Source: Acidobacteriaceae bacterium (GTDB lineage: Bacteria; Acidobacteriota; Terriglobia; Terriglobales; Acidobacteriaceae). From it: 64,000 bases of DNA. Positions within the stretch are counted from its first letter, which is position 1. Each line of letters opens with the position of its first letter. Positions 3,543-63,689 of this stretch are shown in pieces. The position numbers were made by a program, and so were the translations under genes. The stretch lies in NCBI GenBank assembly GCA_021323655.1, contig JAJPKO010000043.1:22337-86336 (forward strand), read 5' to 3'. The notes below the pieces were generated by a model. It did not search any database. It had not been told where the DNA came from and worked only from the letters and a program-made list of their open reading frames with translations.

Positions 3543-5849
3543 ATGGAGACGACCTTCGATTACCTGCGCCAGTTTGGCCCTCTTCTGGCCGAGCGCATCC
3601 TCGAAACCTATCCTCCTCTCCAAAGCACAAAAGATCCGGTCGCACCCGGTCTCGCCGGGCTGCTGCGCAAAGCGCTACCCGCGCAGGCGGTGGCCATTAC
3701 CGGCACAGCAAAGTATCTCCGCAACGCCAAGGCTGCACGCATTGTCGCCGAATGTGGGGCGGGGAAGACGTTTATGGCCTTGGGGACGATCCATGTGCTA
3801 TCGGAGGGGCAGCCAACAACGACGCTGGTGATGTGCCCATCGCACATTACACACAAATGGGCGCGCGAGGTCCTCTTCACTATTCCGCGTGCCCGCACTT
3901 TCCTCATCGAAGACATGCGCAATGGCGGCGATCCCAGCCGTCCACACGGCGTGTGCGAGGTGAAGCTGAAGAATGGCAGAACTGTCTACGAGGGCAAGCG
4001 GCTCGCGCTGTCGGATATGCGGCAGATGGGCCGTAAGGAATGGCGGACGCGGTTTCCCGGACCGACGTTCTTCATTACCGGCAAGGACAAAGGCAAGCTC
4101 AGCTACTTCTGGGATCACGTCTACCTCAAAGCAAAGTCCGGTCCCAACCTCGGTGGTGTCATCAATCCCGATTCGGGGCTCGCCGTTCTCGATTCGGAGA
4201 TGGAAAAGCTCACCGCACTCGATTTCAGGGAGAAGGTAAAAGTCTCGGAATCTCTAACTGCCCGAAAAGGCGGAACTACTAGGTTTTCGGCGCTCTGGCA
4301 GGCGGACCGCAACAAGATTCAGCGCATGGCGCCCATCGAGTACATCGGCCGCTACATGGGCGGATGGTTCGACTTCGCGATTGCCGACGAACTGCATCAA
4401 CTGGCCGGCGACACCGCACAGGGCAACGGACTCGGCGTCCTCGGCCGTGCAGCGCAGAGATTAATCGCGCTTACAGGCACATTGATGGGCGGCTATGCCG
4501 ACGACCTCTTCAACGTCTTCTACCGCATGGAACCACGCGCCATGGTGCGCGAAGGTTTCGCCTATGGAGGCCAGGGACGGAGGGACTTTCAGGAACAATA
4601 CGGCGTTCTTGAAACCATCGAGAAGATCGAAAGCACGGACAACGCCTGCTCGCGGGCGACGAAGAAAACGGTGCGCGTCCTCCGCAAGCCGGGTGCCTCG
4701 CCGTTGCTCTTCGGCAAGTTCCTCATGAACACGACGGCCTTCCTGGCTCTCGAAGACATCTCCGACAACTTGCCTCGCTACGACGAGAGCGTGATCTCAG
4801 TCGATATGGACGAGACACTCCAGCAGGCCTACGAAAAGCTCGAAGAGGATATCCGCTCGGCGATGCGAGAGCATCGCGGCAACAAGAGCTTGATGAGCAT
4901 TCTGCTCAATACGCTCCTGTTATATCCCGACTACCCTTACGACTTCGACGAGATCTGGGCACGTGTTTTTGATCCGCAAACGCAGGAGTTCGTAAAGTTT
5001 CTGGTCACCACACCTCAAAACCTCACGCCGGATGCGCTGTACGCAAAAGAGCGCGCCCTCATCGCGGATGTGAAGGAGGAACTGCGCCAAGGGAGGCGGT
5101 GCCAGATTTATGCAACGTACACAGGCGAAAAGGATGTCAACGCACGCCTCGAAGCTGTTCTACGCCGGGAGGGCATCCGGGTTGCGGTACTTCGTTCCTC
5201 GGTGCCCACCGACAAGCGTGAGGATTGGTATGACCGCCAACTCAAGGCCGACACCGAAGTAGTTGTGTGCCATCCGAAACTCGTCGAAACAGGCCTCGAC
5301 CTGCTCGCGTTTCCGACGCTTTACTTCTACGAGACCGGATATTCGTTACACACCCTGCGCCAGGCGAGCAGGCGGTCCTGGCGCATTGGGCAAAGATTTC
5401 CGGTGCGGGTGAAGTTCGTGACCTACTCCGGGACGATGCAGGAAACGTGCCTTCGGCTGATGGGCAAGAAGATGCTGGTGGCCCTAATGATGGAAGGCAA
5501 GTTCTCCGGCGAAGGATTGCAGGCGCTTGACACAGACGAAGATCTGATGAGCGCCATGGCGCGCGAATTGGTAGAGAAGGCTGGTGTAGGTGAGTCCGCC
5601 AATGCTGTATGGAGAGAACTCGATCAGGAGCGCGAAAAGATCCAGCCGCGGCCTGCCGCCATGGAGCCTGAACAGGAAGAGGAGCTAGCCCCGGTGCTCA
5701 ATCTGCCTGAGGCGTCCGAACCGCAGCCAGGGCCCATGGCTTTCGGCATTCATCTGATGGAACCGCCTTCTGCGGCGAAGAAGCGGAAGAAAGCTCCGGT
5801 TTGGCCCACGGCTAAGGAAACCGATGCGCAACTCAGCCTCTTCGACTGA
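3543..5849 (+). CDS. SNF2/DEAD-like superfamily 2 helicase
   Basis: Walker A is ECGAGKTFMALG, motif II is ADELHQLAG, and the helicase C-terminal motif VI-like segment is LRQASRRSWRIGQ. An AAGGAGG SD lies 8 nt before the ATG. Confidence 0.8.
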   Translation: METTFDYLRQFGPLLAERILETYPPLQSTKDPVAPGLAGLLRKALPAQAVAITGTAKYLRNAKAARIVAECGAGKTFMALGTIHVLSEGQPTTTLVMCPSHITHKWAREVLFTIPRARTFLIEDMRNGGDPSRPHGVCEVKLKNGRTVYEGKRLALSDMRQMGRKEWRTRFPGPTFFITGKDKGKLSYFWDHVYLKAKSGPNLGGVINPDSGLAVLDSEMEKLTALDFREKVKVSESLTARKGGTTRFSALWQADRNKIQRMAPIEYIGRYMGGWFDFAIADELHQLAGDTAQGNGLGVLGRAAQRLIALTGTLMGGYADDLFNVFYRMEPRAMVREGFAYGGQGRRDFQEQYGVLETIEKIESTDNACSRATKKTVRVLRKPGASPLLFGKFLMNTTAFLALEDISDNLPRYDESVISVDMDETLQQAYEKLEEDIRSAMREHRGNKSLMSILLNTLLLYPDYPYDFDEIWARVFDPQTQEFVKFLVTTPQNLTPDALYAKERALIADVKEELRQGRRCQIYATYTGEKDVNARLEAVLRREGIRVAVLRSSVPTDKREDWYDRQLKADTEVVVCHPKLVETGLDLLAFPTLYFYETGYSLHTLRQASRRSWRIGQRFPVRVKFVTYSGTMQETCLRLMGKKMLVALMMEGKFSGEGLQALDTDEDLMSAMARELVEKAGVGESANAVWRELDQEREKIQPRPAAMEPEQEEELAPVLNLPEASEPQPGPMAFGIHLMEPPSAAKKRKKAPVWPTAKETDAQLSLFD

Positions 5850-5906
5850 GTTTTCGCAAATTCAACCCAAAGATACAGTTTCAAGATTCAGTCAGGAGGT
5901 GACATC

Positions 5907-6320
5907 GTGAGTGAGCAACAGGAGAAGATTCGCTGCCGAGGTTGTGAACTGGTTCAGTGGAGCGACCGGAAGAATTGCAGGCGTTGCGGCGCCGTGTTGC
6001 CTGAGCAGGTCGTGAAGATCGTCGAGCGGATTGTTGAGAAGGTTGTAATCCGCCAGGACGCTGAATGTCTCGCCACACTTGAGCAGGCTCAGAAGCTGAT
6101 CGCAATGGCATCGGAACGTCTAAGCCTAAAGACATTCGAACCAGTGTCTCCGCCTCAACCAAATACCTCGTTTCCGACGATGGCAGAGGCGGAACGGGCG
6201 CTCATTCTTGCGGCCTTCCAGAAATCGCGCCGTAAACCTCTCGAAGCCGCGCGGCTGCTCGGGATCGGGAAGACAACCATGTACCGGAAGTTGCGTGAAA
6301 TAAAGGGGATGGCAGCGTAA
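5907..6320 (+). CDS. Zinc-ribbon plus Fis-type HTH DNA-binding protein
   Basis: The N-terminal CRGC..x13..CRRC forms a zinc ribbon. The C-terminal LEAARLLGIGKTTMYRKLRE is a Fis-family HTH. The start is a GTG preceded by AGGAGG. Confidence 0.6.
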   Translation: MSEQQEKIRCRGCELVQWSDRKNCRRCGAVLPEQVVKIVERIVEKVVIRQDAECLATLEQAQKLIAMASERLSLKTFEPVSPPQPNTSFPTMAEAERALILAAFQKSRRKPLEAARLLGIGKTTMYRKLREIKGMAA

Positions 6321-6424
6321 TTTTCGTCAGTATTGTCTGGCATCTATGATGCCTCGATAATGGGAGGTGGTTGACCAAGTGGCACTATTAGAGCGATAAT
6401 TAACTTGTCAACTGGAGGCTCACC

Positions 6425-7330
6425 ATGGTCACATATTCTTCCCATCCCAAAACCCTGGATGAGGTTCAGGCCGCCCTCCAAAAGCACCTCGGCGATCCGG
6501 GCAGAAAAAAGCCCAGCTATACGATTGACCGTCCTTCGCCCAACGCGAACCGGCTCTGCTTGGTCTCCCACGCCATGAACGACCTCCGCTACGAGGTGCG
6601 TCCGGATCTGCTGCAGATCGTCGCAAAGTCCTGGCGTCTTCATTTGTATCTCGACCCCTTCCTCGTAAGCTCAGAATTTGCCAAGGACAAATTTTGCCTC
6701 TTCATTGAAACTCATCCAGACGCTGACCACAGGCATTTCAGCTCGGTGTTGCGCGAACTGACCACGACCAAGCATCCGGCGTTCTACTCGCGGGTTCTGC
6801 GGGCATTCCGCCGTCTGGAAAACAATCTTCCCGCCACGCTGATCGATGAAGCGACGGCGGCGCCCACGGATTATCTGGTGGCGGTCGAAGCGCTGAGTTC
6901 AGCTCCCGAAACCACCGAACTGATTGCAGAGGACCCTTTTGTCGCTGCGAAGTTTCGCGGTCTCAAACGGAAGCAGCAGATGCTCGAAGCGTCCGGTGGG
7001 GCGCTGACTTCTGAGCAGGTTGCCGAGATTCTCGGCATCTCGCGGCAGGCTGTCGACAAACGGCGGGCTGCCGATCAACTCCTGGCGTTGACGCAGGGGA
7101 GGAGAGGGTACAGCTATCCCAGCTTCCAGTTCGAAGACGGTAAGACCATCTCGGGGCTCGAAGAGGTTCTCGCGGCACTCAAAGATCTCGATCCGTGGAT
7201 GCAGATGGTGTTCTTCAGCAGTCCGCACGAGCGGCTGGAAGGAAAGACTCCTATCGAAATACTCAAGAGAGGACGGGCGAGCGATGTCAAGGCTGCGGCC
7301 AGCGGATACGGCGAGCAAGGAGCCGTATGA
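6425..7330 (+). CDS. Xre/ParS/MbcA-type antitoxin (C-terminal DUF2384) with about 190 aa N-terminal extension
   Basis: The C-terminus LTSEQVAEILGISRQAVDKRR...PHERLEGKTPIEILKRG matches an HTH plus a DUF2384 toxin-binding domain. Its stop overlaps the RES gene start (ATGA). Confidence 0.65.
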   Translation: MVTYSSHPKTLDEVQAALQKHLGDPGRKKPSYTIDRPSPNANRLCLVSHAMNDLRYEVRPDLLQIVAKSWRLHLYLDPFLVSSEFAKDKFCLFIETHPDADHRHFSSVLRELTTTKHPAFYSRVLRAFRRLENNLPATLIDEATAAPTDYLVAVEALSSAPETTELIAEDPFVAAKFRGLKRKQQMLEASGGALTSEQVAEILGISRQAVDKRRAADQLLALTQGRRGYSYPSFQFEDGKTISGLEEVLAALKDLDPWMQMVFFSSPHERLEGKTPIEILKRGRASDVKAAASGYGEQGAV

Positions 7331-43737: not shown

Positions 43738-43835
43738 GCGGAATCGGGGCCGGTGAAGCTCAGGGCCTTGATCCACATGTGACAGCGTTCACTTCGCTTG
43801 ACTGTCGTCGTATGCGATCATAAACTTGTTTCAGT

Positions 43836-43915
43836 GGTGACGGAGTTCACCCTTAACCGCTGTCCCCAATAGGCCGGACAGATGATGACTCCTGACAGGG
43901 AATACTGTCACGGAG
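43836..43915 (+). promoter_or_regulatory. Fluoride riboswitch (crcB motif) A plus expression-platform hairpin
   Basis: The sequence is GGTGACGGAGTTCACC CTTAACCG CTGTCC-CCAATAGGCC-GGACAG ATGATGACTCCTGAC. It has P1 GGUGA/UCACC, a loop GGAGU that can pseudoknot with the ACUCC tail, and a P3 hairpin. The tail CTCCTGACAG can instead pair with CTGTCACGGAG, which contains the GGAG SD. Confidence 0.8.
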
Positions 43916-43917
43916 CC

Positions 43918-45662
<1,745 letters not shown>

Positions 45663-45674
45663 CGAATTTGCACG

Positions 45675-45748
45675 CGGTGTTGGAGTCCACCGGAACAGCT
45701 CACACGGGCAAATGACTCCTCGAAGCGCGAAAACTTGGAGGAGTCATG
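45675..45748 (+). promoter_or_regulatory. Fluoride riboswitch (crcB motif) B with SD/start-codon-sequestering hairpin
   Basis: The sequence is CGGTG TTGGAGTC CACCG GAACA GCTC-ACAC-GGGC AAATGACTCCTC. The tail ATGACTCCTC (45712-45721) is perfectly complementary to GAGGAGTCAT (45738-45747), which covers the SD and the AT of the ATG at 45746. Confidence 0.8.
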
Positions 45749-47851
45749 CCCGAAATTGGCCCGGAGGCTACTCAAACTCGGAACCAGGGGGAACTAAACG
45801 AAGCTCAGCAGCGGCGTCTCTACGTCACTTGCTCGTACATCGATAAGCTGCTCGTAGAGATAGAACAGGTACTCCACGAGACGGCTTCGCCGTCCCCTTT
45901 CCCGCGTCACGTCATCGACATCACACCCGCGCAAGCGCGCGTGCTCGAAGATCACATTCGCCGTATTCGCGAACAGCTCTTGCGAACGCTTGACTGGCAA
46001 CAAATGAAGCCCGAATCACCGGAAATTCCGGCTACGCGGTCGGTCCTAACGCATCTCGAGTTCATCGACATTGCGGTTGAGGAACTCAAGCCAAGCTACA
46101 TGCGCGGTTCGGGAACAGTTCCCACAGACGCTGTCGATGAACTGACCGGTGTGGCCCACGAACTCCGATCAGTTGTGCAGAGCATGCAGCGCTATATCCG
46201 CCAGGAGTTTGGAACCAACCTTCAATCCCGCTTGGAATCGCTGGAGCAGACTGGCCATGATGTGGCTCTCCTGCGTGAACTCGAAGAGATCATTACTCGG
46301 CACGGTCTGGTTGAGTTCCGCTCTCGGATTGGTTCTCTCGCTCATCGCCTGGAGGACAACAATCTCGAAGTAGCGCTTTTTGGACGGGTCAGCTGCGGAA
46401 AATCCTCACTCCTGAATGCGCTTCTGGGAACGGCTGTCTTACCGGTGGGTGTCAATCCGATCACAGCCGTCCCAACGAAGTTGCGTTTTGGAAATGCCTT
46501 GCGAGCCGAAGTGACCTTTGGTACCGGCCGCGCGGAGGAGGTTTCCCTTGAGGAATTCGCGCAGCTGATCAGTGAGCAGGGAAACCCCGGAAATGCCCGG
46601 AGCGTTGTCCGCGCGATGGCGGAAGTACCATCGCCACGCCTGAAGAAAGGCATCCTTCTGGTCGATACGCCAGGTCTCGGCTCGCTCGCACGCCGTGGTG
46701 CTGCAGAGACTCTGGCCTATTTGCCGGCCTGCGATCTTGCCTTGGTGCTAATCGATGCCGGTGTGTCACTTAATGATGAAGACATCGGGACACTCCGCTT
46801 GCTTTACGAAGGCGGCATTCCGTCGATTGTGCTCCTCAGCAAGGCCGATCTTTTGCGAGAAGGCGATCTGCACCGGGTTACCGAGTACGTCCATGCGCAA
46901 TTGAAACGCGAACTCGGGATCAATACCCAAATCCATCCTGTCAGTTCCTTGCCGGAGTACTCTCTCCTGCTCGATCAGTTCTTTGAACGTGAGTTGTACC
47001 CGAGATTTGAGCAGGCCCGTAGTCTGCGCGAGGCTTCAGTCGCCAGAAAGATTGGGTCGCTTCGAGATTCCGTGAGTGCGGCTCTTGAGACCTCGCTGAA
47101 CCGCGAGAAGCGAGGGCGAGAGGTTATAAGTGCACTCGATGCTCATGACATAGAAGCACGGCTTCGCCACATCAACGGAGAAATCGGAGAACAGCGAACC
47201 CTGCTCAGTCAGGCGTTTTTTGAGCTTGGCGAACGCCCGGACGTGATCGTGGCAGAGCTTGCCGAGATGGTCACTCTGCGAATTGCTTCAGGCGAAAAGA
47301 GGCACTTCACTCCATTTGAGATATCCGAGTGGACCCACGATACAGTGCAGAGACGAATAGACGAGGCGATTGCAGGGGCCAGGAGCAGGCTGATGAGATC
47401 CATCGAGACATTAACAGAAATCGCCAGGGAAATGTCACGCTCCGACGTGCCTTCGAATGAAGACGCGGAACTACTTTTGCGTGAGGTGCCGCGGTTTGAG
47501 ATTGAAATCATCCCAGTAAAAATTGAGGCCGCCCGCTGGAAGTGGTTAGGAAAACGCATTGTGCGAGCGTTGGTGAAGAGCAACTTGCGGGAATGCCTTG
47601 GACCCTTGCTCAAGGACGAACTGCATCGCTACGAACGTGCGCTCGATCTGTGGACGGAGCAGGCGAGCAGAAAAATGGTAGCTCTTGTGAATTCATATGC
47701 GGACGCTTATCGCGCGCAGCTCAATCGTGTACGGGGGCTATCAGGAGGTGGCGAGACATCACCGGAGCTGGCTCAAGACCTTGCTCGGCTTCTGCGTTGG
47801 AATTCTAGTGAGCGCTCCGACAGCAAAACGCGCCTAGCGATGAACGAATAG
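45746..47851 (+). CDS. Bacterial dynamin-like GTPase
   Basis: G1 is GRVSCGKSSLLNALLG, G3 is LVDTPGLGS and G4 is LLSKADLL. Long helical regions flank the GTPase domain. Confidence 0.75.
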   Translation: MPEIGPEATQTRNQGELNEAQQRRLYVTCSYIDKLLVEIEQVLHETASPSPFPRHVIDITPAQARVLEDHIRRIREQLLRTLDWQQMKPESPEIPATRSVLTHLEFIDIAVEELKPSYMRGSGTVPTDAVDELTGVAHELRSVVQSMQRYIRQEFGTNLQSRLESLEQTGHDVALLRELEEIITRHGLVEFRSRIGSLAHRLEDNNLEVALFGRVSCGKSSLLNALLGTAVLPVGVNPITAVPTKLRFGNALRAEVTFGTGRAEEVSLEEFAQLISEQGNPGNARSVVRAMAEVPSPRLKKGILLVDTPGLGSLARRGAAETLAYLPACDLALVLIDAGVSLNDEDIGTLRLLYEGGIPSIVLLSKADLLREGDLHRVTEYVHAQLKRELGINTQIHPVSSLPEYSLLLDQFFERELYPRFEQARSLREASVARKIGSLRDSVSAALETSLNREKRGREVISALDAHDIEARLRHINGEIGEQRTLLSQAFFELGERPDVIVAELAEMVTLRIASGEKRHFTPFEISEWTHDTVQRRIDEAIAGARSRLMRSIETLTEIAREMSRSDVPSNEDAELLLREVPRFEIEIIPVKIEAARWKWLGKRIVRALVKSNLRECLGPLLKDELHRYERALDLWTEQASRKMVALVNSYADAYRAQLNRVRGLSGGGETSPELAQDLARLLRWNSSERSDSKTRLAMNE

Positions 47852-47863
47852 GGAGACAAGCAC

Positions 47864-48241
47864 TTGGAGAAATATTTCTATATCGCGATTGGAGGTTCGC
47901 TCGGGTCGATCGCCCGATACTGGGTCGGTACAACTGTGTCCGACCGCCTTGGTTCTAAGTTCCCTTATGGAACTTTCATCATCAACATTTCGGCCTGCAT
48001 CATTATCGGATTTGCGATCACGTGTTTGGGAAAGCACGTCGAATTGAATCCCGCATGGCGTTTCTTAATCCCGGTAGGATTCGTGGGCGCATACAGCACG
48101 TTTTCAACCTACGAATGGGAGACGCTATCGTCGATTCGGACAGGTGCATTCGCTCTCGCGGTTCTCTATTCGTTAACGAGCGTGGTTTTGGGAATTCTGG
48201 CCGCATGGGCCGGCGCCATTCTCGCGGAGGTGATCACGTGA
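47864..48241 (+). CDS. crcB: Fluoride ion channel CrcB/FluC
   Basis: IAIGGSLGSIARYWV, YGTFIINISACIIIGF and GFVGAYSTFSTYEWE are canonical CrcB motifs. The protein is 125 aa. Confidence 0.9.
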   Translation: MEKYFYIAIGGSLGSIARYWVGTTVSDRLGSKFPYGTFIINISACIIIGFAITCLGKHVELNPAWRFLIPVGFVGAYSTFSTYEWETLSSIRTGAFALAVLYSLTSVVLGILAAWAGAILAEVIT

Positions 48242-48804
48242 GAGCACATCGCCAAATCGTGCTTCATCAGTCCATCGAGGAACTCTTGCACGAGCCGGGA
48301 TGCCCGTTCTGCCGCTTTCTGAAGGATTTCCAGGCAGTTCATCTGCAGGGAGATTCCGCCAAGGAAATCCGTCGGCTCTGTAACTTTCACGCTTGGGGTG
48401 TGGCGGCGGTACAAGATGCCCAGGCGGCAGCGGACGTCTTCCTGACCCTGGTCAATGATGACGGATCAGTCCCGGGGCAACGGCCGGACTGCGACGTCTG
48501 CCGCAAGGTCATAGAGGAAGAGGATCGGAGAATTCGGGAGTTGGTCACCATGCTGGGAAAGCCTGATGTGGTGAGGTGGCTGCGAATGGAGGCCGTCTTC
48601 TGCATTCCGCACGCCGTCAAACTACGTCAAAAAGTGCCACTGACACTTACGGCGCGAATCGACGTGATCATTCGGAATTATCGTGAACAACTGAAGGACG
48701 AACTGATCCAATTGCGGAATGATCCGAGCCCTGATCGGTCAGGGTGGGGCGCACTTGGACGGGCTGCGGAGTTTTTAGTTGCGCAACGGGGACTCAGGAT
48801 ATAA
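48238..48804 (+). CDS. Cys-rich (CxxC / CxxH x2) protein of unknown function
   Basis: The GTG at 48238 overlaps the crcB stop (GTGA). Motifs are CPFC...CNFH...CDVC...CIPH. The track start at 48022 lies inside crcB. Confidence 0.5.
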   Translation: MRAHRQIVLHQSIEELLHEPGCPFCRFLKDFQAVHLQGDSAKEIRRLCNFHAWGVAAVQDAQAAADVFLTLVNDDGSVPGQRPDCDVCRKVIEEEDRRIRELVTMLGKPDVVRWLRMEAVFCIPHAVKLRQKVPLTLTARIDVIIRNYREQLKDELIQLRNDPSPDRSGWGALGRAAEFLVAQRGLRI

Positions 48805-48813
48805 GGAGGAAGA

Positions 48814-49581
48814 ATGCTGAACGTGGGGAAGGCTCTTAAAGTAGCCATCTACATCAGTGAAGGATCAACTCATCATGGGGTCGCGACATACTCCAGCATT
48901 CTCGATTTTCTATTCTATCGGGGCGTGTCGGGAGCAACGGTGACAAAGGGCATCGCAGGATTCGGCGCTGACCACCATATTCACACTTCGAGATCTGTTG
49001 AAATATCTGATCGTCTTCCATTGAAGATTGAGTTCATCGAGTCGCGTGAAAAGGTGAATGAGTTGCTTGGCAAGCTGGAAGAACTGGTCGGTACCGGAAT
49101 GATCGAGGTACAAGAGACAACGGTAGCCAAACCCGCCCAGAAAACCAAACCGAAAAGTGATACTGCTCCAGCTCACCTAAAGATCGAGGGCAAGGCCAAG
49201 ATGATGCGGATCTACATTGGCGAAGCAGACCGCTGGAGAGACAAACCGCTCCACACGGCCCTTATGGAAGCTATGCGCGCAAACGACATTGCCGGGGTTA
49301 CCGTTTATCGCGGCATCCTCGGGTATGGAGCGCATCGCAGGCTGCACAAGGACCGCGCACTTCATCTTTCCCACGATTGCTCAATCATGCTGTCAGCCAT
49401 TGATACAGAGGAGAAGCTCCAGGCATTTATGCCAATCGTGGAGCAGATGGTAGAGGAGGGCTTGATCGTTCTCTCTAACGTCGACATCATCAAGTACGCC
49501 TATCGTGCCGAAGGGTTAGATCAGCCAGAAGTAGTTCCTTCTTCTTCCCACACACCTGTGCAAGGAGATCAAACGCCATGA
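48814..49581 (+). CDS. Tandem DUF190 (PII-like, crcB-associated) protein
   Basis: There are two repeats of the pattern [LKVAIYISEG...GVSGATVTKGIAGFG] and [MRIYIGEADRW..KPLHTALMEAMRANDIAGVTVYRGILGYG]. Confidence 0.7.
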   Translation: MLNVGKALKVAIYISEGSTHHGVATYSSILDFLFYRGVSGATVTKGIAGFGADHHIHTSRSVEISDRLPLKIEFIESREKVNELLGKLEELVGTGMIEVQETTVAKPAQKTKPKSDTAPAHLKIEGKAKMMRIYIGEADRWRDKPLHTALMEAMRANDIAGVTVYRGILGYGAHRRLHKDRALHLSHDCSIMLSAIDTEEKLQAFMPIVEQMVEEGLIVLSNVDIIKYAYRAEGLDQPEVVPSSSHTPVQGDQTP

Positions 49582-50175: not shown

Positions 50176-50637
50176 ATGGACATAATGACAAAGGCCTTTT
50201 TTCAACGGGCTCTTGTAGGGGCCGATGGAACAGATGCCTCTCAACTGGCAATTGACGTAGCGATCGCACTTGCGAAGCGATTTGGTTCAGAGCTTCACTG
50301 CATCGGCGTCATCAGGCCCCCCAGTCCCGAAACGGAAGCAGAAGGGGTCGGATTTGAGCAGCTTGAACGAGATCACAAAGCGATTCGGGACCAAGTAGGT
50401 AGTTGTGCAGACAGAGCACGCGGCGAGGGAGTCCAAGCGATCACAGTCGAGCTTGACGGTGATCCGGAATCAGTCATTGAGAATTACGGTCTCGAGAACG
50501 AATTCGACATTATCATCGTTGGGCACCATCATCTGAACCGCTTCCGGCGCTTCCTCGAAGGATCTACCTCCGACAGCCTGGTCGAGCATTCTTCAGCTTC
50601 TGTTCTCGTTGTACGAGCCCCATCTCAAGAATCGTAA
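50176..50637 (+). CDS. Universal stress protein (UspA family)
   Basis: The C-terminal DIIIVGHHHLNRFRRFLEGSTSDSLVEHSSASVLVVR is the Usp ATP-binding-type motif G-x2-G-x9-GS. Confidence 0.8.
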   Translation: MDIMTKAFFQRALVGADGTDASQLAIDVAIALAKRFGSELHCIGVIRPPSPETEAEGVGFEQLERDHKAIRDQVGSCADRARGEGVQAITVELDGDPESVIENYGLENEFDIIIVGHHHLNRFRRFLEGSTSDSLVEHSSASVLVVRAPSQES

Positions 50638-58903: not shown

Positions 58904-58970
58904 GGCGCGACTCCTATGAGGTAGGAATCATCAGCCGTGAAGGCGGTTATCGGTGGAGTTCCATCACCGT
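58904..58970 (-). promoter_or_regulatory. Fluoride riboswitch (crcB motif) C, minus strand, about 215 nt upstream of the Hyf-like operon
   Basis: The minus strand reads ACGGTGATGGAACTCCACC GATAAC CGCCTTCACGGC TGATGATTCCTACC. The tail TCCTA can pair with the downstream TAGGA of a TAGGAG SD that precedes the GTG at 58903. Confidence 0.75.
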
Positions 58971-59140
58971 CCCGACATGTGCTGCCAACATATTGAACCG
59001 CAAGAACCTACTTGTCAAGGCGACCACCGCCGCCACGGCATATCGCATCCAGCGTCAGCGCGATCGGAGCAGTGCGCCCCGGACGTGATTCGGCGCGTCA
59101 TTGACAGTCCACCACACCGGTCACGATACTGACTGGGAGC

Positions 59141-59212
59141 GGGTGTTGGAGTCCACTCTGATACGCCCCTCCCACGAGGGGAAGATGACTCCTGCGAGTA
59201 GGACAGCAGGAG
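59141..59212 (+). promoter_or_regulatory. Fluoride riboswitch (crcB motif) D with SD-sequestering hairpin, upstream of the MutS-related pair
   Basis: The sequence is GGGTG TTGGAGTC CACTC TGATACG CCCCTC-CCAC-GAGGGG AAGATGACTCCTGC. The tail ACTCCTGC is perfectly complementary to GCAGGAGT (59205-59212), which contains the AGGAG SD. Confidence 0.8.
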
Positions 59213-59218
59213 TTGACT

Positions 59219-60877
59219 GTGCCAACGAACCCCGCCAATCGCCCAGCCCCGGAGCCCCGGCTACAAAGCAACCCTCCAGCAATCACTCCAGGCAACGAGA
59301 CAAACCCTGATGCTTCAGCCTTTCACAGCATCCTGACCGAGTGTCAGGATGTCGACGGGCAGTCTGAGATCCAGGAAGCTCCTGGATTCTTTAGCGATCT
59401 CAATCTCGATCAGATCGTCGGCACGATCACGGCCGGACGAGAACAGTACGATTTGAAGCCACTCTTCTATACGCCCCTAAAGACCGTTGAGGCTGTTCAC
59501 TATCGGCAGGACGTCTTCCGCGATCTTTCAGGGAATTTCCGCCTATTGGAACTGGTTCGTTCATTTGCGGAAAGAATGCGGGAGATGCGAACTCTTCTCG
59601 CGATTTCCGAAAAGCGATACTACAAACGTCAAAAGCAAGCCGCCTTTCTCGATGCCGTTGAAACATACTGCAATACTGTCACGGTGCTTAAGGAAGGCCT
59701 GCTCTCCACAGGTCCTGCGTCGCGAGGATTCCAGGCGCTTCGCGGTTTTCTTGTCCGCTACACCGGCTCAGAAGAGTTCACCAGCCTGAAGAAGGAAACG
59801 GAGCGGGTCAGAGCAGAGCTCGCGAAGGTCCGATATTCGCTTCACATCCATCAGGGGCGTGTCACGGTCAACCGCACTGACACGGAAGGCGACTACAGCG
59901 AGGAAGTTCTCAGAACCTTCGAAAAATTCCGGCAGACGGATCCGCGAAGCCATCGCTTCAAGGTTCCCCTATCGATTGAGATGAATCACATTGAGGCACG
60001 AATCCTCGATCTGGTCTCCGCATTGCATTCGGAAGCATTTGCCCGCCTAGACGCGTATTGCGACCGATACCGCAACTACTGTCATCAGCTGATTGCCAGA
60101 TTCGATCGCGAAGTACAGTTCTACATCGCCTATCTCGAACAACTGGAACAGTTGAAGAAGGCAGCGCTTCCGTTCTGTTTCCCAGGCGTGAGCAGCCATT
60201 CGAAGGAAGTGCAGGCGCTCGACACCTACGATGTTGCGCTTGCGAATCAGCTGATTCATGCCCGGAAAGATGTGGTTAAAAACAGCTTTTGCTTGAACGA
60301 ACCCGAGCGCACTTTAGTCGTCTCTGGGCCCAATCAAGGCGGGAAGACCACGTTTGCGCGCACCTTTGGACAGCTACATTATCTGGCGGCTCTGGGCTGT
60401 CCGGTGGCGGGCATCTCAACAAAATTATTCCTATTTGATCGACTCTTTACGCACTTCGAGAAGGAAGAGGACATTCAAAATCTACGCGGGAAGCTTGAAG
60501 ACGAGCTGATCCGCATCAACGAGATTCTTGAGAATGCGACAGCGAACAGCATCCTCATAACGAACGAGAGCTTTTTGTCGACGACGATGAACGACGCTCT
60601 CTTTCTCAGCCGCGAGGTGATGAAGCGGATCGCCGCTCTCGATATGCTTTGCGTGACTGTTACGTTTCTCGATGAATTGGCTTCATTCAACGAAACGACT
60701 GTAAGCATGGTCAGCACGGTGAATCCCACGGATCCGCAGCAGCGGACATTCAAAGTGATCCGGAGACCGGCTGATGGCCTTGCTTACGCAGCAGCGATCG
60801 CCGAGAAATATCACCTGACCTACGAGGCAGTGAAGACGCGGGTAGGTGCGAGGGAAAGCGAGGTGAACGAGTCATGA
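59219..60877 (+). CDS. MutS-related ATPase (domain V type, no mismatch-binding domain recognised) 1
   Basis: Walker A is VVSGPNQGGKTTFARTFGQL. The Walker B-like segment is SILITNESFLSTT. The GTG at 59219 lies 6 nt after AGGAG; the track start TTG at 59213 has no spacing. Confidence 0.7.
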   Translation: MPTNPANRPAPEPRLQSNPPAITPGNETNPDASAFHSILTECQDVDGQSEIQEAPGFFSDLNLDQIVGTITAGREQYDLKPLFYTPLKTVEAVHYRQDVFRDLSGNFRLLELVRSFAERMREMRTLLAISEKRYYKRQKQAAFLDAVETYCNTVTVLKEGLLSTGPASRGFQALRGFLVRYTGSEEFTSLKKETERVRAELAKVRYSLHIHQGRVTVNRTDTEGDYSEEVLRTFEKFRQTDPRSHRFKVPLSIEMNHIEARILDLVSALHSEAFARLDAYCDRYRNYCHQLIARFDREVQFYIAYLEQLEQLKKAALPFCFPGVSSHSKEVQALDTYDVALANQLIHARKDVVKNSFCLNEPERTLVVSGPNQGGKTTFARTFGQLHYLAALGCPVAGISTKLFLFDRLFTHFEKEEDIQNLRGKLEDELIRINEILENATANSILITNESFLSTTMNDALFLSREVMKRIAALDMLCVTVTFLDELASFNETTVSMVSTVNPTDPQQRTFKVIRRPADGLAYAAAIAEKYHLTYEAVKTRVGARESEVNES

Positions 60878-62418
60878 AAGTCTTCCTCATGTTTCGGGAC
60901 CACGACTTTGTCCTCGACGAGGGTATCCCGGAAAATGCGCAAGAAACGATTCAGGATCTTGAGTTGAACACCCTGTTTCGGGCCGTGGCTGGCGGCGATG
61001 ATTTTCTACTGCAAGTTGCGAAAGGTGCCGTGCTCGCAAGCCTCAAGAATCGAGAATCCATCCTTTATCGGCAGGAGGTGCTTGCGGACTGCCTGGCATT
61101 CCCCGACATTGCGCGAGATCTCTACGCTCTCGCAGTTGATGCCATTGAACGCGAGAGCCGGATCTGGGGTTGGTTCGCGCTTTCTTCTCCGGACTCGCTG
61201 CTGCACCGATCGGTCGAAGCTTTGGGACTTCTTATTGGGTTGCTTGAGCGCCTAAGAAAACTGGCTGATGAACACAGTTCCAAATTCCGCTCAGAAGGCT
61301 TCCGGTGGTTCTTTGGCATGGCCACTCAGGAACTGTCCGATAGCTACCTGCAAGCTGTGAAGGACCACCTGGTAAGACTGGAGTTCCGCGGCGGCGTTCA
61401 AATGAGCGCCGATCTGGGGCGCGATTTTCGAGGCTCCAATTACACTCTCCACAGCCTTGAGGTAGAGGCACTGGGTTGGTTCGAACAGGTCCGGGAATGG
61501 GTCGGCCAGATCACGCGCAAAGATGACTCGGGGCTGTCATTCGACGTTGACCCACGCGACGAGGCGGGCTTCCGTGCATTGGAAGCGCTCAGAACGGAGG
61601 GGATCGCCAATGTCGCTATTGCGTTGGCGCAATCGAGCGATCACATTCTTAGTTTCTTTAAGGCGCTGCGATTGGAATTGGGATTCTATATAGGATGCCT
61701 AAATCTGCGGGACAAACTCGCCGCGAAACAGGAGCCCTTCTGCATTCCAAATCCACTGCCAGAGAAAGACGAAGTACTTCGGTGCCAGGGAATCTACGAC
61801 GTTTGCTTGACCCTGAACACAGCCGAGCGGGTGGTCGGCAACGACGTCTGCGGGGAGAAAAAAGCCTTGGTTGTGATTACGGGCGCCAACCGCGGCGGCA
61901 AGTCGACACTCTTACGGAGCTTTGGCGTGGCTCAGCTGATGATGCAGTGCGGCATGTTCGTACCGGCGCGCGAATTCCATGCGAATGTCTGCCAGGGCAT
62001 CTTTACCCATTTCAAGCGAGAAGAAGATGCCAGCATGAAAAGTGGCAAACTGGACGAAGAACTCAGCAGAATGAATGCCATTGTAGAGCGAATTACACCT
62101 CGTTGCGTGCTTCTTCTAAATGAGTCGTTTGCTTCAACCAATGAGCGGGAGGGGTCGGAAATCGCCAGACAGATCGTTCGCGCTCTCCTTGAAAAACAGG
62201 TAAAGATTCTCTATGTCACGCACATGTTCGATCTGGCGGATGGGTTTCATCGGCAGCACATGGAGTCTGCACTCTTTCTTCGTGCCGAGCGCCTCGAGGA
62301 CGGCACGCGTACTTTCCGCCTTTTGGAAGGGGTGCCTGAGAGAACCAGCTATGGGGAAGATCTGTTCCGGCGCATTTTTCAGGCTGAACCTGAGAGCCTT
62401 CAGCCCACCGCGCAGTGA
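60874..62418 (+). CDS. MutS-related ATPase (domain V type) 2
   Basis: Walker A is VVITGANRGGKSTLLRSFGVAQLMMQCGMFVPA. The Walker B-like segment is VLLLNESFASTNEREG. Its ATG overlaps the upstream stop. Confidence 0.7.
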   Translation: MKVFLMFRDHDFVLDEGIPENAQETIQDLELNTLFRAVAGGDDFLLQVAKGAVLASLKNRESILYRQEVLADCLAFPDIARDLYALAVDAIERESRIWGWFALSSPDSLLHRSVEALGLLIGLLERLRKLADEHSSKFRSEGFRWFFGMATQELSDSYLQAVKDHLVRLEFRGGVQMSADLGRDFRGSNYTLHSLEVEALGWFEQVREWVGQITRKDDSGLSFDVDPRDEAGFRALEALRTEGIANVAIALAQSSDHILSFFKALRLELGFYIGCLNLRDKLAAKQEPFCIPNPLPEKDEVLRCQGIYDVCLTLNTAERVVGNDVCGEKKALVVITGANRGGKSTLLRSFGVAQLMMQCGMFVPAREFHANVCQGIFTHFKREEDASMKSGKLDEELSRMNAIVERITPRCVLLLNESFASTNEREGSEIARQIVRALLEKQVKILYVTHMFDLADGFHRQHMESALFLRAERLEDGTRTFRLLEGVPERTSYGEDLFRRIFQAEPESLQPTAQ

Positions 62419-62477
62419 TGATCCGACAAGGAGTAATGAAATAAGAATTCAAACTGCGGTCACGATGGATACCGGGA

Positions 62478-63689
62478 ATGGACCTTGTCGACAAAAACAT
62501 CGACCGACATAACAACCGGCCGCCGAACCCGAACCACAATGCGGCTCTCAGATTCGTTCTGCTCATTGGTGTGCTGAGCTTCTTTGCCGATTTCACCTAT
62601 GAGGGCGCTCGCAGCGTATATGGCCCGTTTCTCGCTAGTTTGGCAGCGAGCGCGACGGTGGTCAGCATTGTCGCAGGTTTCGGCGAACTGGTTGGATACG
62701 GTTTCCGCCTAGTATCGGGACGGTGGGCAGACCGGACCGGAAACTTCTGGCCCATCGCAATCTTCGGCTATTTTGTGCAGTTGCTCGCAGTACCGGCTCT
62801 GGCCCTGGCGCACAACTGGCCGACCGCTGCGGTACTGATCATCCTGGAACGGTTTGGGAGAGCAACTCGTAATCCGCCTCGTGATGCGATGCTTTCGCAC
62901 GCCGGCAGCGAGATCGGCTTTGGCTGGGCCTTCGGCGTACATGAGGCCCTCGACCAGTTTGGTGCTCTTTTTGGGCCGTTGCTGGTGGCTGCGATCCTGG
63001 CATGGCGGGGAAGCTATCGTCTCGCTTTTGCAGCCTTGCTTATCCCAATGACCATTTGCTTGAGCATGGTTTTGATCGCGCGGCATATCTACCCGAGGCC
63101 GCACGACCTAGAGGTCCAGGCCGGAAACGTGAAGACGAAGGGGCTTCCGGGCACCTTCTGGACGTACTTGGCTGGCGCAGCGTTGGTCGCGACAGGATTC
63201 GCCGATTTTCCGCTAATTGCCTACCACTTCACTCGGGCATCGACTGTGCCGAAAGACATCGTGCCGGTTGCATATGCAATTGCGATGGGCGTGAGCGGAA
63301 CTGGATCACTCGTGTTCGGCAGGTGGTTCGATCGTTTTGGAGTTGTTATTCTTATCCCTCTGACACTCATCGCTTCAGCTTTCGCTCCCCTGGTCTTCCT
63401 GGGAGGCTTTTGGCCTGCCTTGATTGGCGCAGCAGTGTGGGGGCTTGGCATGGGTGTGCACGAGTCGATCATTCCCGCGGTCGTTGCGCCAATGGTCTCT
63501 TCGGATCGGCGCGCTTCCGCATACGGACTCTTTACCGCGGGATACGGGATCTTCTGGTTTATCGGCAGCGCCATTATGGGGGTTCTTTATGACCGCTCGG
63601 TGTCAGGAACGGTCATCTTCTGTGTGGCAACCCAACTGGCTGCGATTCCATTGTTTCTCGCCGTTAGACGGCGGACAATTCCGGGGTAA
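62478..63689 (+). CDS. MFS transporter
   Basis: 403 aa with about 12 hydrophobic segments. SGRWADRTG is the MFS loop 2-3 type motif. Confidence 0.75.
   Translation: MDLVDKNIDRHNNRPPNPNHNAALRFVLLIGVLSFFADFTYEGARSVYGPFLASLAASATVVSIVAGFGELVGYGFRLVSGRWADRTGNFWPIAIFGYFVQLLAVPALALAHNWPTAAVLIILERFGRATRNPPRDAMLSHAGSEIGFGWAFGVHEALDQFGALFGPLLVAAILAWRGSYRLAFAALLIPMTICLSMVLIARHIYPRPHDLEVQAGNVKTKGLPGTFWTYLAGAALVATGFADFPLIAYHFTRASTVPKDIVPVAYAIAMGVSGTGSLVFGRWFDRFGVVILIPLTLIASAFAPLVFLGGFWPALIGAAVWGLGMGVHESIIPAVVAPMVSSDRRASAYGLFTAGYGIFWFIGSAIMGVLYDRSVSGTVIFCVATQLAAIPLFLAVRRRTIPG

Follow-up and report, generated by a model that had tools for sequence, protein, structure and literature searches.

What are two MutS-like ATPases doing behind a fluoride riboswitch? 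The question is raised by a stretch of 64,000 nucleotides (nt) from an Acidobacteriaceae bacterium, referred to here as the window, in which two adjacent plus-strand genes, MutS4A and MutS4B, follow a putative fluoride aptamer (aptamer D) and precede a gene for a transporter of the major facilitator superfamily (MFS). We lean towards the view that the two proteins assemble, once induced by fluoride, into a heterodimeric clamp ATPase whose ATP sites are remodelled and asymmetric and which probably acts on nucleic acid. The positions of all the features discussed are collected in Table 1.

The two genes had been described in the original prediction as translationally coupled paralogues of 552 and 514 amino acids (aa), and this proved to be correct. 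Both open reading frames are present, the sequence ATGA at 60874-60877 forms the stop codon of MutS4A together with the start codon of MutS4B (a 4-nt overlap), and the products share 29% identity over 224 aa (E = 1e-25), which makes them paralogues. By its layout and domain content the pair belongs to the MutS4A/MutS4B subfamily, which was already named in 2007. Lin, Nei and Ma (2007, Nucleic Acids Research; PMC2190696) described MutS4A and MutS4B as adjacent genes with overlapping stop and start codons and with the MutSac domain only; they were then known from five species, distant bacteria including Thermoanaerobacter as well as Thermoplasma and Ferroplasma, and their function was unstudied. 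The genes in the window agree with this definition in having the ATGA overlap and in being recognisable by Pfam through MutS_V alone (E = 2e-14 for MutS4A and 2e-22 for MutS4B). The orthologous pair of Thermoanaerobacter (locus L039) has the same layout and is 52-55% identical. The family is now considerably larger: at least 587 species-level genomes were matched, and the homologues (E ≤ 1e-30) form 893 clusters at 50% identity. The A-then-B pair was found in Acidobacteriota, Planctomycetota, Chloroflexota and Firmicutes (Moorella, Thermoanaerobacter, Pelotomaculum), and also in Actinomycetota, Thermotogota, Bacteroidota and archaea. In a BLAST comparison, which is not a tree, the two genes of every locus could be told apart without ambiguity as one of type A and one of type B, and the 4-nt overlap was seen at essentially every locus in which both genes are complete (most of the 80 loci compared).

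The ATP sites of the two proteins are unusual for the MutS family. All four motifs quoted in the original prediction, the P-loops GPNQGGKTT and GANRGGKST and the Walker B sequences ILITNESFLSTT (MutS4A) and LLLNESFASTN (MutS4B), were found exactly as written, and its claim that both copies have Asn instead of Asp in the Walker B motif was upheld by alignment: in a phmmer search against the chains of the PDB, N449-E450 of MutS4A and N416-E417 of MutS4B were placed on the Walker B Asp-Glu of MutS2 (7vuf and the B. subtilis protein). The outcome that, according to the original prediction, would have refuted it, namely a profile alignment with the Walker B elsewhere and a normal Asp, was therefore not obtained. 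A survey of homologues showed Asn-Glu to be a feature of the whole family. The alignments built for MutS4A and MutS4B (A2, A3) show it without variation, and it is practically universal in both genes at the 80 genome loci across phyla. Among close homologues it was present in 119/120 and 120/120, and 138 of the 145 P-loop sites of the 50%-identity cluster representatives had it, the remainder failing the regular expression. No Asp-Glu was detected by the regular-expression scan of the same homologues and cluster representatives.

Two further positions are altered. The 'STF' signature-like motif of MutS is replaced by Gly-Lys-Leu in both proteins, and the H-loop is asymmetric, with Phe in MutS4A and His in MutS4B; the Phe (F483) is invariant in the MutS4A family alignment and was present in 116 of 120 homologues. 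Judged by what is expected of a MutS ATPase, both proteins thus have the Walker A motif and the catalytic Glu, in both the Asp and STF are replaced, and the His is found only in MutS4B. These comparisons showed that MutS4 proteins share a specific and conserved rewiring of the predicted ATP site (Asn-Glu, Gly-Lys, His/Phe). Each subunit of a MutS dimer completes the ATP site of its partner, so the A/B pair would have two unequal ATP sites.

The second characteristic of the family is its association with fluoride. We counted aptamers at 70 loci with usable upstream DNA and measured distances from the conserved start of MutS4A. A fluoride aptamer was present within 400 nt upstream on the same strand at 47 loci (67%) and within 2.5 kb at 55, and 63 loci (90%) contained one or more aptamers at any position. 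The linkage spans Acidobacteriota, Firmicutes, Chloroflexota, Planctomycetota, Actinomycetota and archaea. Neighbouring genes were counted over 80 loci, and those that recur are a universal stress protein (24 loci), MFS transporters (23), enolase (22), a Na+/H+ exchanger (17), Hyf-like subunits (8-15), pyrophosphatase (11), a HIT protein (9), CrcB (7) and GpmA (7), which is the classic fluoride regulon. The immediate neighbours of the two genes vary from locus to locus, and a fixed third partner was ruled out on this ground. In one Streptosporangiaceae locus (L052), an extra MutS4B-like gene (4867-6441, plus strand) was seen downstream of the regular A-B pair, preceded by a fluoride aptamer of its own (4533-4599).

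That mutS genes occur under the fluoride motif is not new, as 'DNA repair (mutS)' already appears in the list of crcB-motif genes given by Weinberg et al. (2010; PMC2864571). MutS is not mentioned in a 2024 review of fluoride resistance, and our literature search found no paper joining the fluoride riboswitch with a MutS function. The original prediction, which held the function of riboswitch-linked MutS-like genes to be unestablished, was therefore right as to function; what it had missed is that the subfamily had its name from 2007 and that the link between mutS and the motif had been in print since 2010. The one experiment that our search turned up, by Kim et al. (2017; PMC5742357), favours DNA as the target: with a MutS4 operon of Mycobacterium yongonense, M. 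smegmatis recombined an rpoB fragment at a higher frequency of homologous recombination. In that work the horizontally acquired (Type I) island of M. yongonense carries MutS4A/B, enolase and six NADH-dehydrogenase-like genes, and no connection with fluoride was drawn. Because this gene set matches the island in our window, we suggest that the M. yongonense island, too, serves the response to fluoride and is not a recombination module.

To see what kind of protein is encoded, we compared the sequences with domain models and built AlphaFold2 single-chain models from the family alignments. The Pfam scan of both proteins gave no match to MutS_I, MutS_II, MutS_III, MutS_IV or Smr, and MutS_V was the sole match. 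NCBIfam gave weak, sub-threshold matches to MutS, MutS2 and KamC, confined to the C-terminal part of both proteins; the MutS models scored 55-76 bits against cut-offs of 480-642 and were covered only in their C-terminal third, and the MutS2 model TIGR01069 scored 51-69 bits against a cut-off of 400. The AlphaFold2 models, with a mean predicted local distance difference test (pLDDT) score of 73 for MutS4A and 82 for MutS4B, each start with a long helical region at the N-terminus, followed by a small beta element and the ATPase. In a Foldseek search of the PDB, both models could be aligned from end to end (about 520-600 columns, E from 1e-12 to 1e-17) with the core of Thermus thermophilus MutS2 (7vuf), with MSH2, MSH3 and MSH6, with bacterial MutS and with the disome-bound MutS2 of B. 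subtilis (7qv3_w). As these full-length matches and the layout of the models show, each protein, as modelled, is made up solely of the MutS domains III (lever), IV (clamp) and V (ATPase).

The fold search thus identified the N-terminal regions as lever and clamp, and the observation that there is no mismatch-recognition domain was confirmed by Pfam (no MutS_I or MutS_II) and by the fold search, which returned domains III-V only. The models begin in the lever domain, so that the MutS1-type domain I and the connector domain II are absent; both chains stop within about 60 residues of the ATPase core, and neither Pfam nor the models show the KOW/coiled-coil/Smr tail of MutS2. The first 34 residues of MutS4A (59219-59320) are rich in Pro and Asn and of low complexity and are kept only in the closest Acidobacteriaceae relatives; they are predicted to be disordered (pLDDT about 30-34), and distant MutS4A orthologues begin near residue 35. 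A role in anti-phage defence was also considered and dropped, as the PADLOC models of defence systems gave matches at the P-loop level only (E > 0.003).

If each protein is a lever, a clamp and an ATPase, the next question is what the clamp would hold. One answer is that MutS4A and MutS4B act on ribosomes or other RNA-protein assemblies, as the MutS2 (RqcU) of B. subtilis does, and split or release complexes that stall once fluoride-metal complexes have trapped translational GTPases. The best sequence matches in the PDB are indeed to MutS2 (7vuf, E about 2e-16, and the structures on collided disomes, 7qv3 and 8qpp), the full-length Foldseek matches include the disome-bound chain, the neighbourhood is free of DNA-repair genes, and in the window a dynamin-family GTPase stands under the same variant type of aptamer as the pair. 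MutS2 reportedly uses the KOW, coiled-coil and Smr regions that follow its ATPase when it works on the ribosome, and these are the parts that MutS4 lacks, as it ends at the ATPase. In addition, no translation genes recur near the pair, and outside the ATPase domain the likeness to MutS2 is no greater than that to MSH3 or MutS. We therefore regard a ribosomal substrate as unlikely.

Another answer takes the enzymes around the pair as its substrates. MutS4A and MutS4B would then be an ATP-driven reactivase of Mg enzymes poisoned by fluoride, such as enolase and pyrophosphatase, and would remove tightly bound Mg-F-phosphate complexes in the manner of KamC, the reactivase of lysine 5,6-aminomutase. 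The top NCBIfam match of MutS4B is the KamC model NF052383, which is a MutS-domain-V ATPase of MutS4-like size without domain I (about 508 positions, or some 510 residues) and which MutS4A matches over positions 135-435; enolase (22 loci), pyrophosphatase (11) and GpmA (7) adjoin the pair, and enolase lies in the island of the window. The scores of 78.9 bits (MutS4B) and 41.8 bits (MutS4A), however, are far under the cut-off of 300 bits and no better than those for MutS and MutS2, no single enzyme is a constant neighbour, and the combination of lever and clamp is typical of clamps that encircle nucleic acid. No aminomutase genes were found in the region of the window or among the recurrent neighbours, and a literature search on KamC returned nothing relevant. 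This explanation seems to us improbable, more so than the ribosomal one, and we keep to a clamp on nucleic acid.

It was then necessary to establish whether the pair in the window is itself preceded by a fluoride aptamer. At its gathering score Rfam found two fluoride aptamers in the window, at 43827-43901 (plus strand) and 58915-58977 (minus strand); neither at this score nor at E ≤ 1 over 24 kb (40-64 kb of the window) did it find a plus-strand aptamer before MutS4A. When the Rfam model RF01734 was applied to 251 nt only, aptamer D was detected with 20.7 bits (E = 0.001), the gathering score being 34. We also built a covariance model, R1, from 18 aligned aptamers of related loci, for which canonical aptamers were picked by a regular expression in the 80 related loci. 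Run over about 1 Mb of sequence from related loci, R1 gave 144 aptamers; in the window it gave four, including those at 45667-45734 and 59133-59207 on the plus strand, the latter being aptamer D. The conclusion from Rfam alone that no riboswitch precedes the pair was thus overturned by R1 and by Rfam on the short sequence, and an aptamer is found in the corresponding place in orthologous loci. The claim that the pair lies directly behind a fluoride aptamer accordingly holds as a prediction of a plus-strand aptamer, one whose score stays below the Rfam gathering score.

The sequence of aptamer D reads GUUGG...AAGAUGA instead of GAUGG...CUGAUGA. We aligned 133 aptamers with a model from which the pseudoknot and the long-range pair were absent. 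In this alignment 94.5% of the cells were paired and double changes occurred at 13 of the 14 pairs; none of 500 shuffles reached the observed pairing values. The long-range pair was A/U in 97 aptamers and U/A in 25, and A/A or U/U in none. The swapped form (G-A-UGG/C-U-GAUGA to G-U-UGG/A-A-GAUGA) makes up a subclass of 25 of the 133 aptamers, with no half-swapped forms, and this subclass scores below the RF01734 gathering threshold. The swapped positions are, we presume, the reversed Watson-Crick pair A6·U38 of the Thermotoga petrophila fluoride aptamer. Eighteen to 21 of the 25 swapped aptamers precede MutS4A, in loci of Acidobacteriota/Bryobacterales whose aptamers are otherwise canonical. 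In aptamer D itself, P1, P3, the GGAGU/ACUCC pseudoknot and the long-range pair, here of the U/A type, are all able to form. On the evidence of this covariation, aptamer D is a predicted member of a variant class and not a decayed aptamer.

The opposite reading, that the aptamer upstream of the pair has decayed, that only the minus-strand switch of the Hyf-like operon works and that MutS4A and MutS4B are not regulated by fluoride here, takes the failure of Rfam at both settings, the score of only 20.7 to 21.5 bits and the two otherwise near-invariant nucleotides off consensus at face value. It would have to account for a reciprocal change from A·U to U·A in 25 independent aptamers without single-sided intermediates, for the intact P1, P3 and pseudoknot, and for an expression platform that relatives have kept despite changes in its loops; moreover, the same genomes keep canonical aptamers elsewhere, so there is no general drift. 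We consider it very improbable, and fluoride control of the pair remains our preferred interpretation.

The expression platform consists of a hairpin that joins the aptamer to the start of MutS4A. The 3' strand of the pseudoknot, ACUCCUGC (59188-59195), is complementary to GCAGGAGU (59206-59213), which includes the Shine-Dalgarno sequence AGGAG (59208-59212). MutS4A could start on the plus strand at TTG 59213 or at GTG 59219. The TTG adjoins the Shine-Dalgarno sequence and is not conserved, unlike the GTG, which lies 6 nt behind AGGAG, and we rejected it. In the nearest relatives (L003-L006) the pairing of the Shine-Dalgarno sequence is kept, the loops differ and a GUG is conserved 6 nt past it; together with the hairpin arrangement this supports GTG 59219 as the start, as the original prediction had it. 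Since the hairpin and the pseudoknot share one strand, a translational ON switch is implied, and the platform would act on translation by sequestration of the Shine-Dalgarno sequence and not as a terminator. Directly 5' of the aptamer we noticed a promoter-like site. It matches the pattern and no more: the region shows no excess of such sites over shuffled sequences, and it is only the position of this one that is suggestive.

From these elements we propose the following course of events. Without fluoride, the Shine-Dalgarno sequence of MutS4A would be sequestered in the hairpin; with fluoride bound, the pseudoknot would hold ACUCC, the Shine-Dalgarno sequence would be free and MutS4A could be translated. 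MutS4B would follow by translational coupling, and the MFS gene probably by read-through. The two products would assemble into a heterodimer of the MutS type. Its two composite ATP sites would not be alike, the one with the P-loop of MutS4B and its His being nearer to canonical and that of MutS4A degenerate, and the heterodimer would work as a nucleotide-gated clamp. The remodelling by Asn and Lys may change the coordination of Mg2+ and of the gamma-phosphate, and under Mg-fluoride such a switch would be expected to differ from the Asp-Glu ATPases of the MutS family. The most speculative step concerns the substrate of the clamp, which would be nucleic acid and likeliest duplex or branched DNA, given the domain-I-less MutS2, MSH4-MSH5 and archaeal MutS5; on DNA, the clamp might support recombinational repair or restart in fluoride stress.

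The heterodimer-like character of the pair, which was part of the original prediction, is plausible from the conserved A-then-B order with its 4-nt overlap and from the complementary degeneracy of the ATP sites. Two cluster representatives, P0246 (1026 aa) and P0256 (942 aa), have an A-like half followed by a B-like half and are candidates for fusions. Genuine fusions would favour an A-B complex. Their junction regions do not align, however, so they may be frameshift artefacts at the 4-nt overlap, and we dropped them as proof of an interaction.

This doubt about the fusions and the failure of Rfam to find aptamer D at its usual settings both speak against a fluoride-induced heterodimeric clamp on nucleic acid, and several other results do so as well. 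The clamp regions carry a net charge of about 0 and are modelled with low confidence; with a clamp that is not basic, nucleic-acid binding is not evident from the sequence, and neither the charge nor the conserved Lys/Arg residues of lever and clamp were informative on this point. No DNA-repair genes recur near the pair in the 80 loci, and as the neighbours all belong to metabolism and ion homeostasis, a role in DNA repair is weakened. The recombination result in M. smegmatis is a single heterologous assay. Our literature search found neither biochemical nor genetic work on whether any MutS4 protein depends on fluoride, forms dimers, hydrolyses ATP or acts on a given substrate, and a search for transcripts found the sequence only in DNA metagenome runs (soil, mine) and in no RNA.

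A bolder version of the proposal would give the rewired ATP site a direct part in the response to fluoride. MutS4A and MutS4B would then be a nucleotide switch adapted to fluoride through the Asn-Glu Walker B motif and a Lys acting in trans, and the swapped aptamer would be a tuned sensor or a sensor of another ligand. We rate this as a long shot. Two forms of it are possible: the ATP sites could escape the trapping by ADP·MgFx or AlFx to which Asp-Glu P-loop NTPases are subject, so that the clamp stays active under fluoride, or the cycle of the pair could be gated by the binding of metal fluoride. As for the U·A-swapped aptamers, they may be fluoride sensors with a different threshold or possibly sensors of a different ligand species.

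The last gene to be considered is that of the MFS transporter. It does follow MutS4B after 59 nt on the same strand, as had been noted, and because the gap (62418-62478) contains no plus-strand terminator-like site and no aptamer, it is probably on the A-B transcript. Its identity is generic: besides MFS_1 there are only weak NCBIfam matches, and a sequence search of the PDB gave no match. MFS homologues (at least 50% identity) occur near the pair at about 23 of the 80 loci, where they lie upstream or downstream, adjacent or kilobases off, and on the opposite strand in at least 7 loci; at L005, L029 and L038 the MFS gene has a fluoride aptamer of its own. As position, strand and regulation vary, the transporter is better described as a neighbour in the regulon than as a fixed partner. 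In the spacer we also noticed a mini-ORF of three codons (ATG AAA TAA, 62436-62444, plus strand) that follows a strong AAGGAG. No clear Shine-Dalgarno sequence precedes the MFS start at 62478, and the mini-ORF may be due to chance or serve as a coupling device. The suggestion, put forward as a possibility in the original prediction, that the MFS transporter and the two ATPases form one machine, for instance with the ATPase pair regulating or energising an exporter, draws on the uninterrupted same-strand arrangement and on the 23 loci, and it can hardly be maintained when most loci have no MFS gene near the pair, when its placement is so free and its control in three loci separate, and when MFS proteins are secondary carriers for which we know of no need of a cytosolic ATPase.

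The pair is part of a larger fluoride island in the window, about 20 kb long and with four aptamers, which contains enolase, the dynamin-family GTPase, a tandem-DUF190 protein, a universal stress protein, the Hyf-like operon and the MutS4 pair. Aptamer D and the canonical aptamer of the Hyf-like operon stand back to back on opposite strands (58915-59207), their 5' ends 155 nt apart, at the heads of two divergent operons that they are predicted to drive. Both variant aptamers of the window precede genes for P-loop NTPases, and both canonical ones precede other genes (enolase and the Hyf-like operon). In the MutS4 loci of Acidobacteriota, a small AAA/STAND-like ATPase (9 loci), a HEAT-repeat protein (8) and a metallophosphoesterase (6) were also seen to recur; examples of these three neighbours lie at 6294-7049 in L003, 2124-3071 in L011 and 3076-3798 in L012.

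Table 1. Features of the MutS4 locus and of the surrounding fluoride island, with positions in the window
Feature	Position	Strand	Description
MutS4A	59219-60877	+	552 aa; residues 1-34 Pro-rich and predicted to be disordered, followed by the lever, clamp and ATPase domains of MutS
MutS4A Walker A, GPNQGGKTT	60326-60352	+	residues 370-378
MutS4A GKLEDEL	60488-60508	+	residues 424-430; position of the MutS 'STF' signature-like motif; K425 invariant
MutS4A Walker B, ILITNESFLSTT	60551-60586	+	residues 445-456; N449, E450, S451 and F452 invariant
MutS4A VTVTF	60653-60667	+	F483 in place of the H-loop His; aligned to 'vttH' of 7vuf
MutS4B	60874-62418	+	514 aa; lever, clamp and ATPase; start overlaps the stop of MutS4A
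MutS4B Walker A, GANRGGKST	61882-61908	+	residues 337-345
MutS4B GKLDEEL	62044-62064	+	residues 391-397; signature position; K392 invariant
MutS4B Walker B, LLLNESFASTN	62110-62142	+	residues 413-423; N416, E417, S418 and F419 invariant
MutS4B YVTHM	62212-62226	+	H-loop His H450 retained
Promoter-like site TTGACA-18 nt-GATACT	59101-59130	+	10/12 matches; directly 5' of the aptamer; pattern match only
Variant fluoride aptamer (aptamer D)	59133-59207	+	predicted P1, P3 and pseudoknot; 21.5 bits with model R1, 20.7 bits with Rfam
Expression platform hairpin, ACUCCUGC/GCAGGAGU	59188-59213	+	predicted; 3' pseudoknot strand pairs with Shine-Dalgarno sequence; in minimum free energy and centroid folds, z = -3.6
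MFS transporter	62478-63689	+	403 aa; Pfam MFS_1, E = 1e-23; 59 nt past the stop of MutS4B
Canonical fluoride aptamer	58915-58977	-	Rfam 53.8 bits; faces away from the pair and leads the divergent Hyf/complex-I-like operon
Hyf/complex-I-like operon	58703 down to 51062	-	NADHdh, Oxidored_q2, Proton_antipo_M, Complex1_49kDa/30kDa, Oxidored_q6 (Pfam)
Canonical fluoride aptamer	43827-43901	+	precedes enolase (44358-45662)
Variant-type aptamer	45667-45734	+	31.7 bits with model R1; missed by Rfam; before a 701-aa dynamin-family GTPase (region 45667-47851)
260-aa protein	48022-48804	+	no Pfam family; downstream of the GTPase
Protein with two DUF190/P-II-like domains	48814-49581	+	
Universal stress protein	50176-50637	+	
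Swapped-subclass aptamers	59133-59207; 45667-45734	+	in the window
Swapped-subclass aptamers in other loci			L003-L006, L008-L013, L015, L017, L018, L020, L021, L024, L028, L029, L031, L035

The genes called mutS have been listed under the fluoride riboswitch since 2010, yet they are missing from current accounts of fluoride resistance. What is new here is the family-wide signature of the ATP site, the asymmetry between MutS4A and MutS4B, the strength and breadth of the linkage to fluoride, and a family far larger than the five species of 2007. As a side result, the Rfam model was found to miss a subclass of fluoride aptamers. The vague annotation as 'DNA mismatch repair protein' can now be replaced by concrete experimental questions.

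Among known systems, MutS2 is the closest in sequence and fold, and like the pair it lacks domains I and II and has a lever, a clamp and an ATPase. MutS2 is a homodimer with Asp-Glu, STF, the H-loop His and a C-terminal KOW/coiled-coil and Smr extension, whereas MutS4 comes as an A/B pair that shows Asn-Glu and Gly-Lys-Leu and lacks any C-terminal extension. Eukaryotic MSH4-MSH5 (MutS-gamma) also lacks domain I and is an obligate heterodimer of paralogues that works as an ATP-gated clamp on branched or duplex DNA. Archaeal MutS5 is a further MutS protein without domain I that forms a clamp on DNA (PMC2190696). MSH4-MSH5 and MutS5 differ from the pair in keeping the canonical Asp-Glu, and they show no specific sequence affinity to it. 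We know of no link between either of them and fluoride.

The same exchange of the Walker B Asp for Asn is found in the D693N variant of E. coli MutS (3k0s), which is among the PDB matches of both proteins. This variant reportedly loses the coordination of Mg2+, switches slowly in response to ATP and does not support repair in vivo. D693N is an engineered loss-of-function form of a mismatch-repair protein, whereas MutS4 proteins carry the Asn naturally and have conserved it, together with other changes at the site such as the Lys at the signature position. The riboswitch resembles the crcB motif (RF01734) in P1, P3, the GGAGU/ACUCC pseudoknot, its site in the 5' untranslated region and the use of the 3' pseudoknot strand in the expression platform; it differs in its score below the gathering threshold, in the swapped pair and in a platform that is predicted to be translational and not a terminator. 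With the MutS4 proteins of Lin, Nei and Ma (2007), finally, the pair shares its layout, its recognisability through MutSac only and a patchy distribution in bacteria and some archaea, and nothing essential differs.

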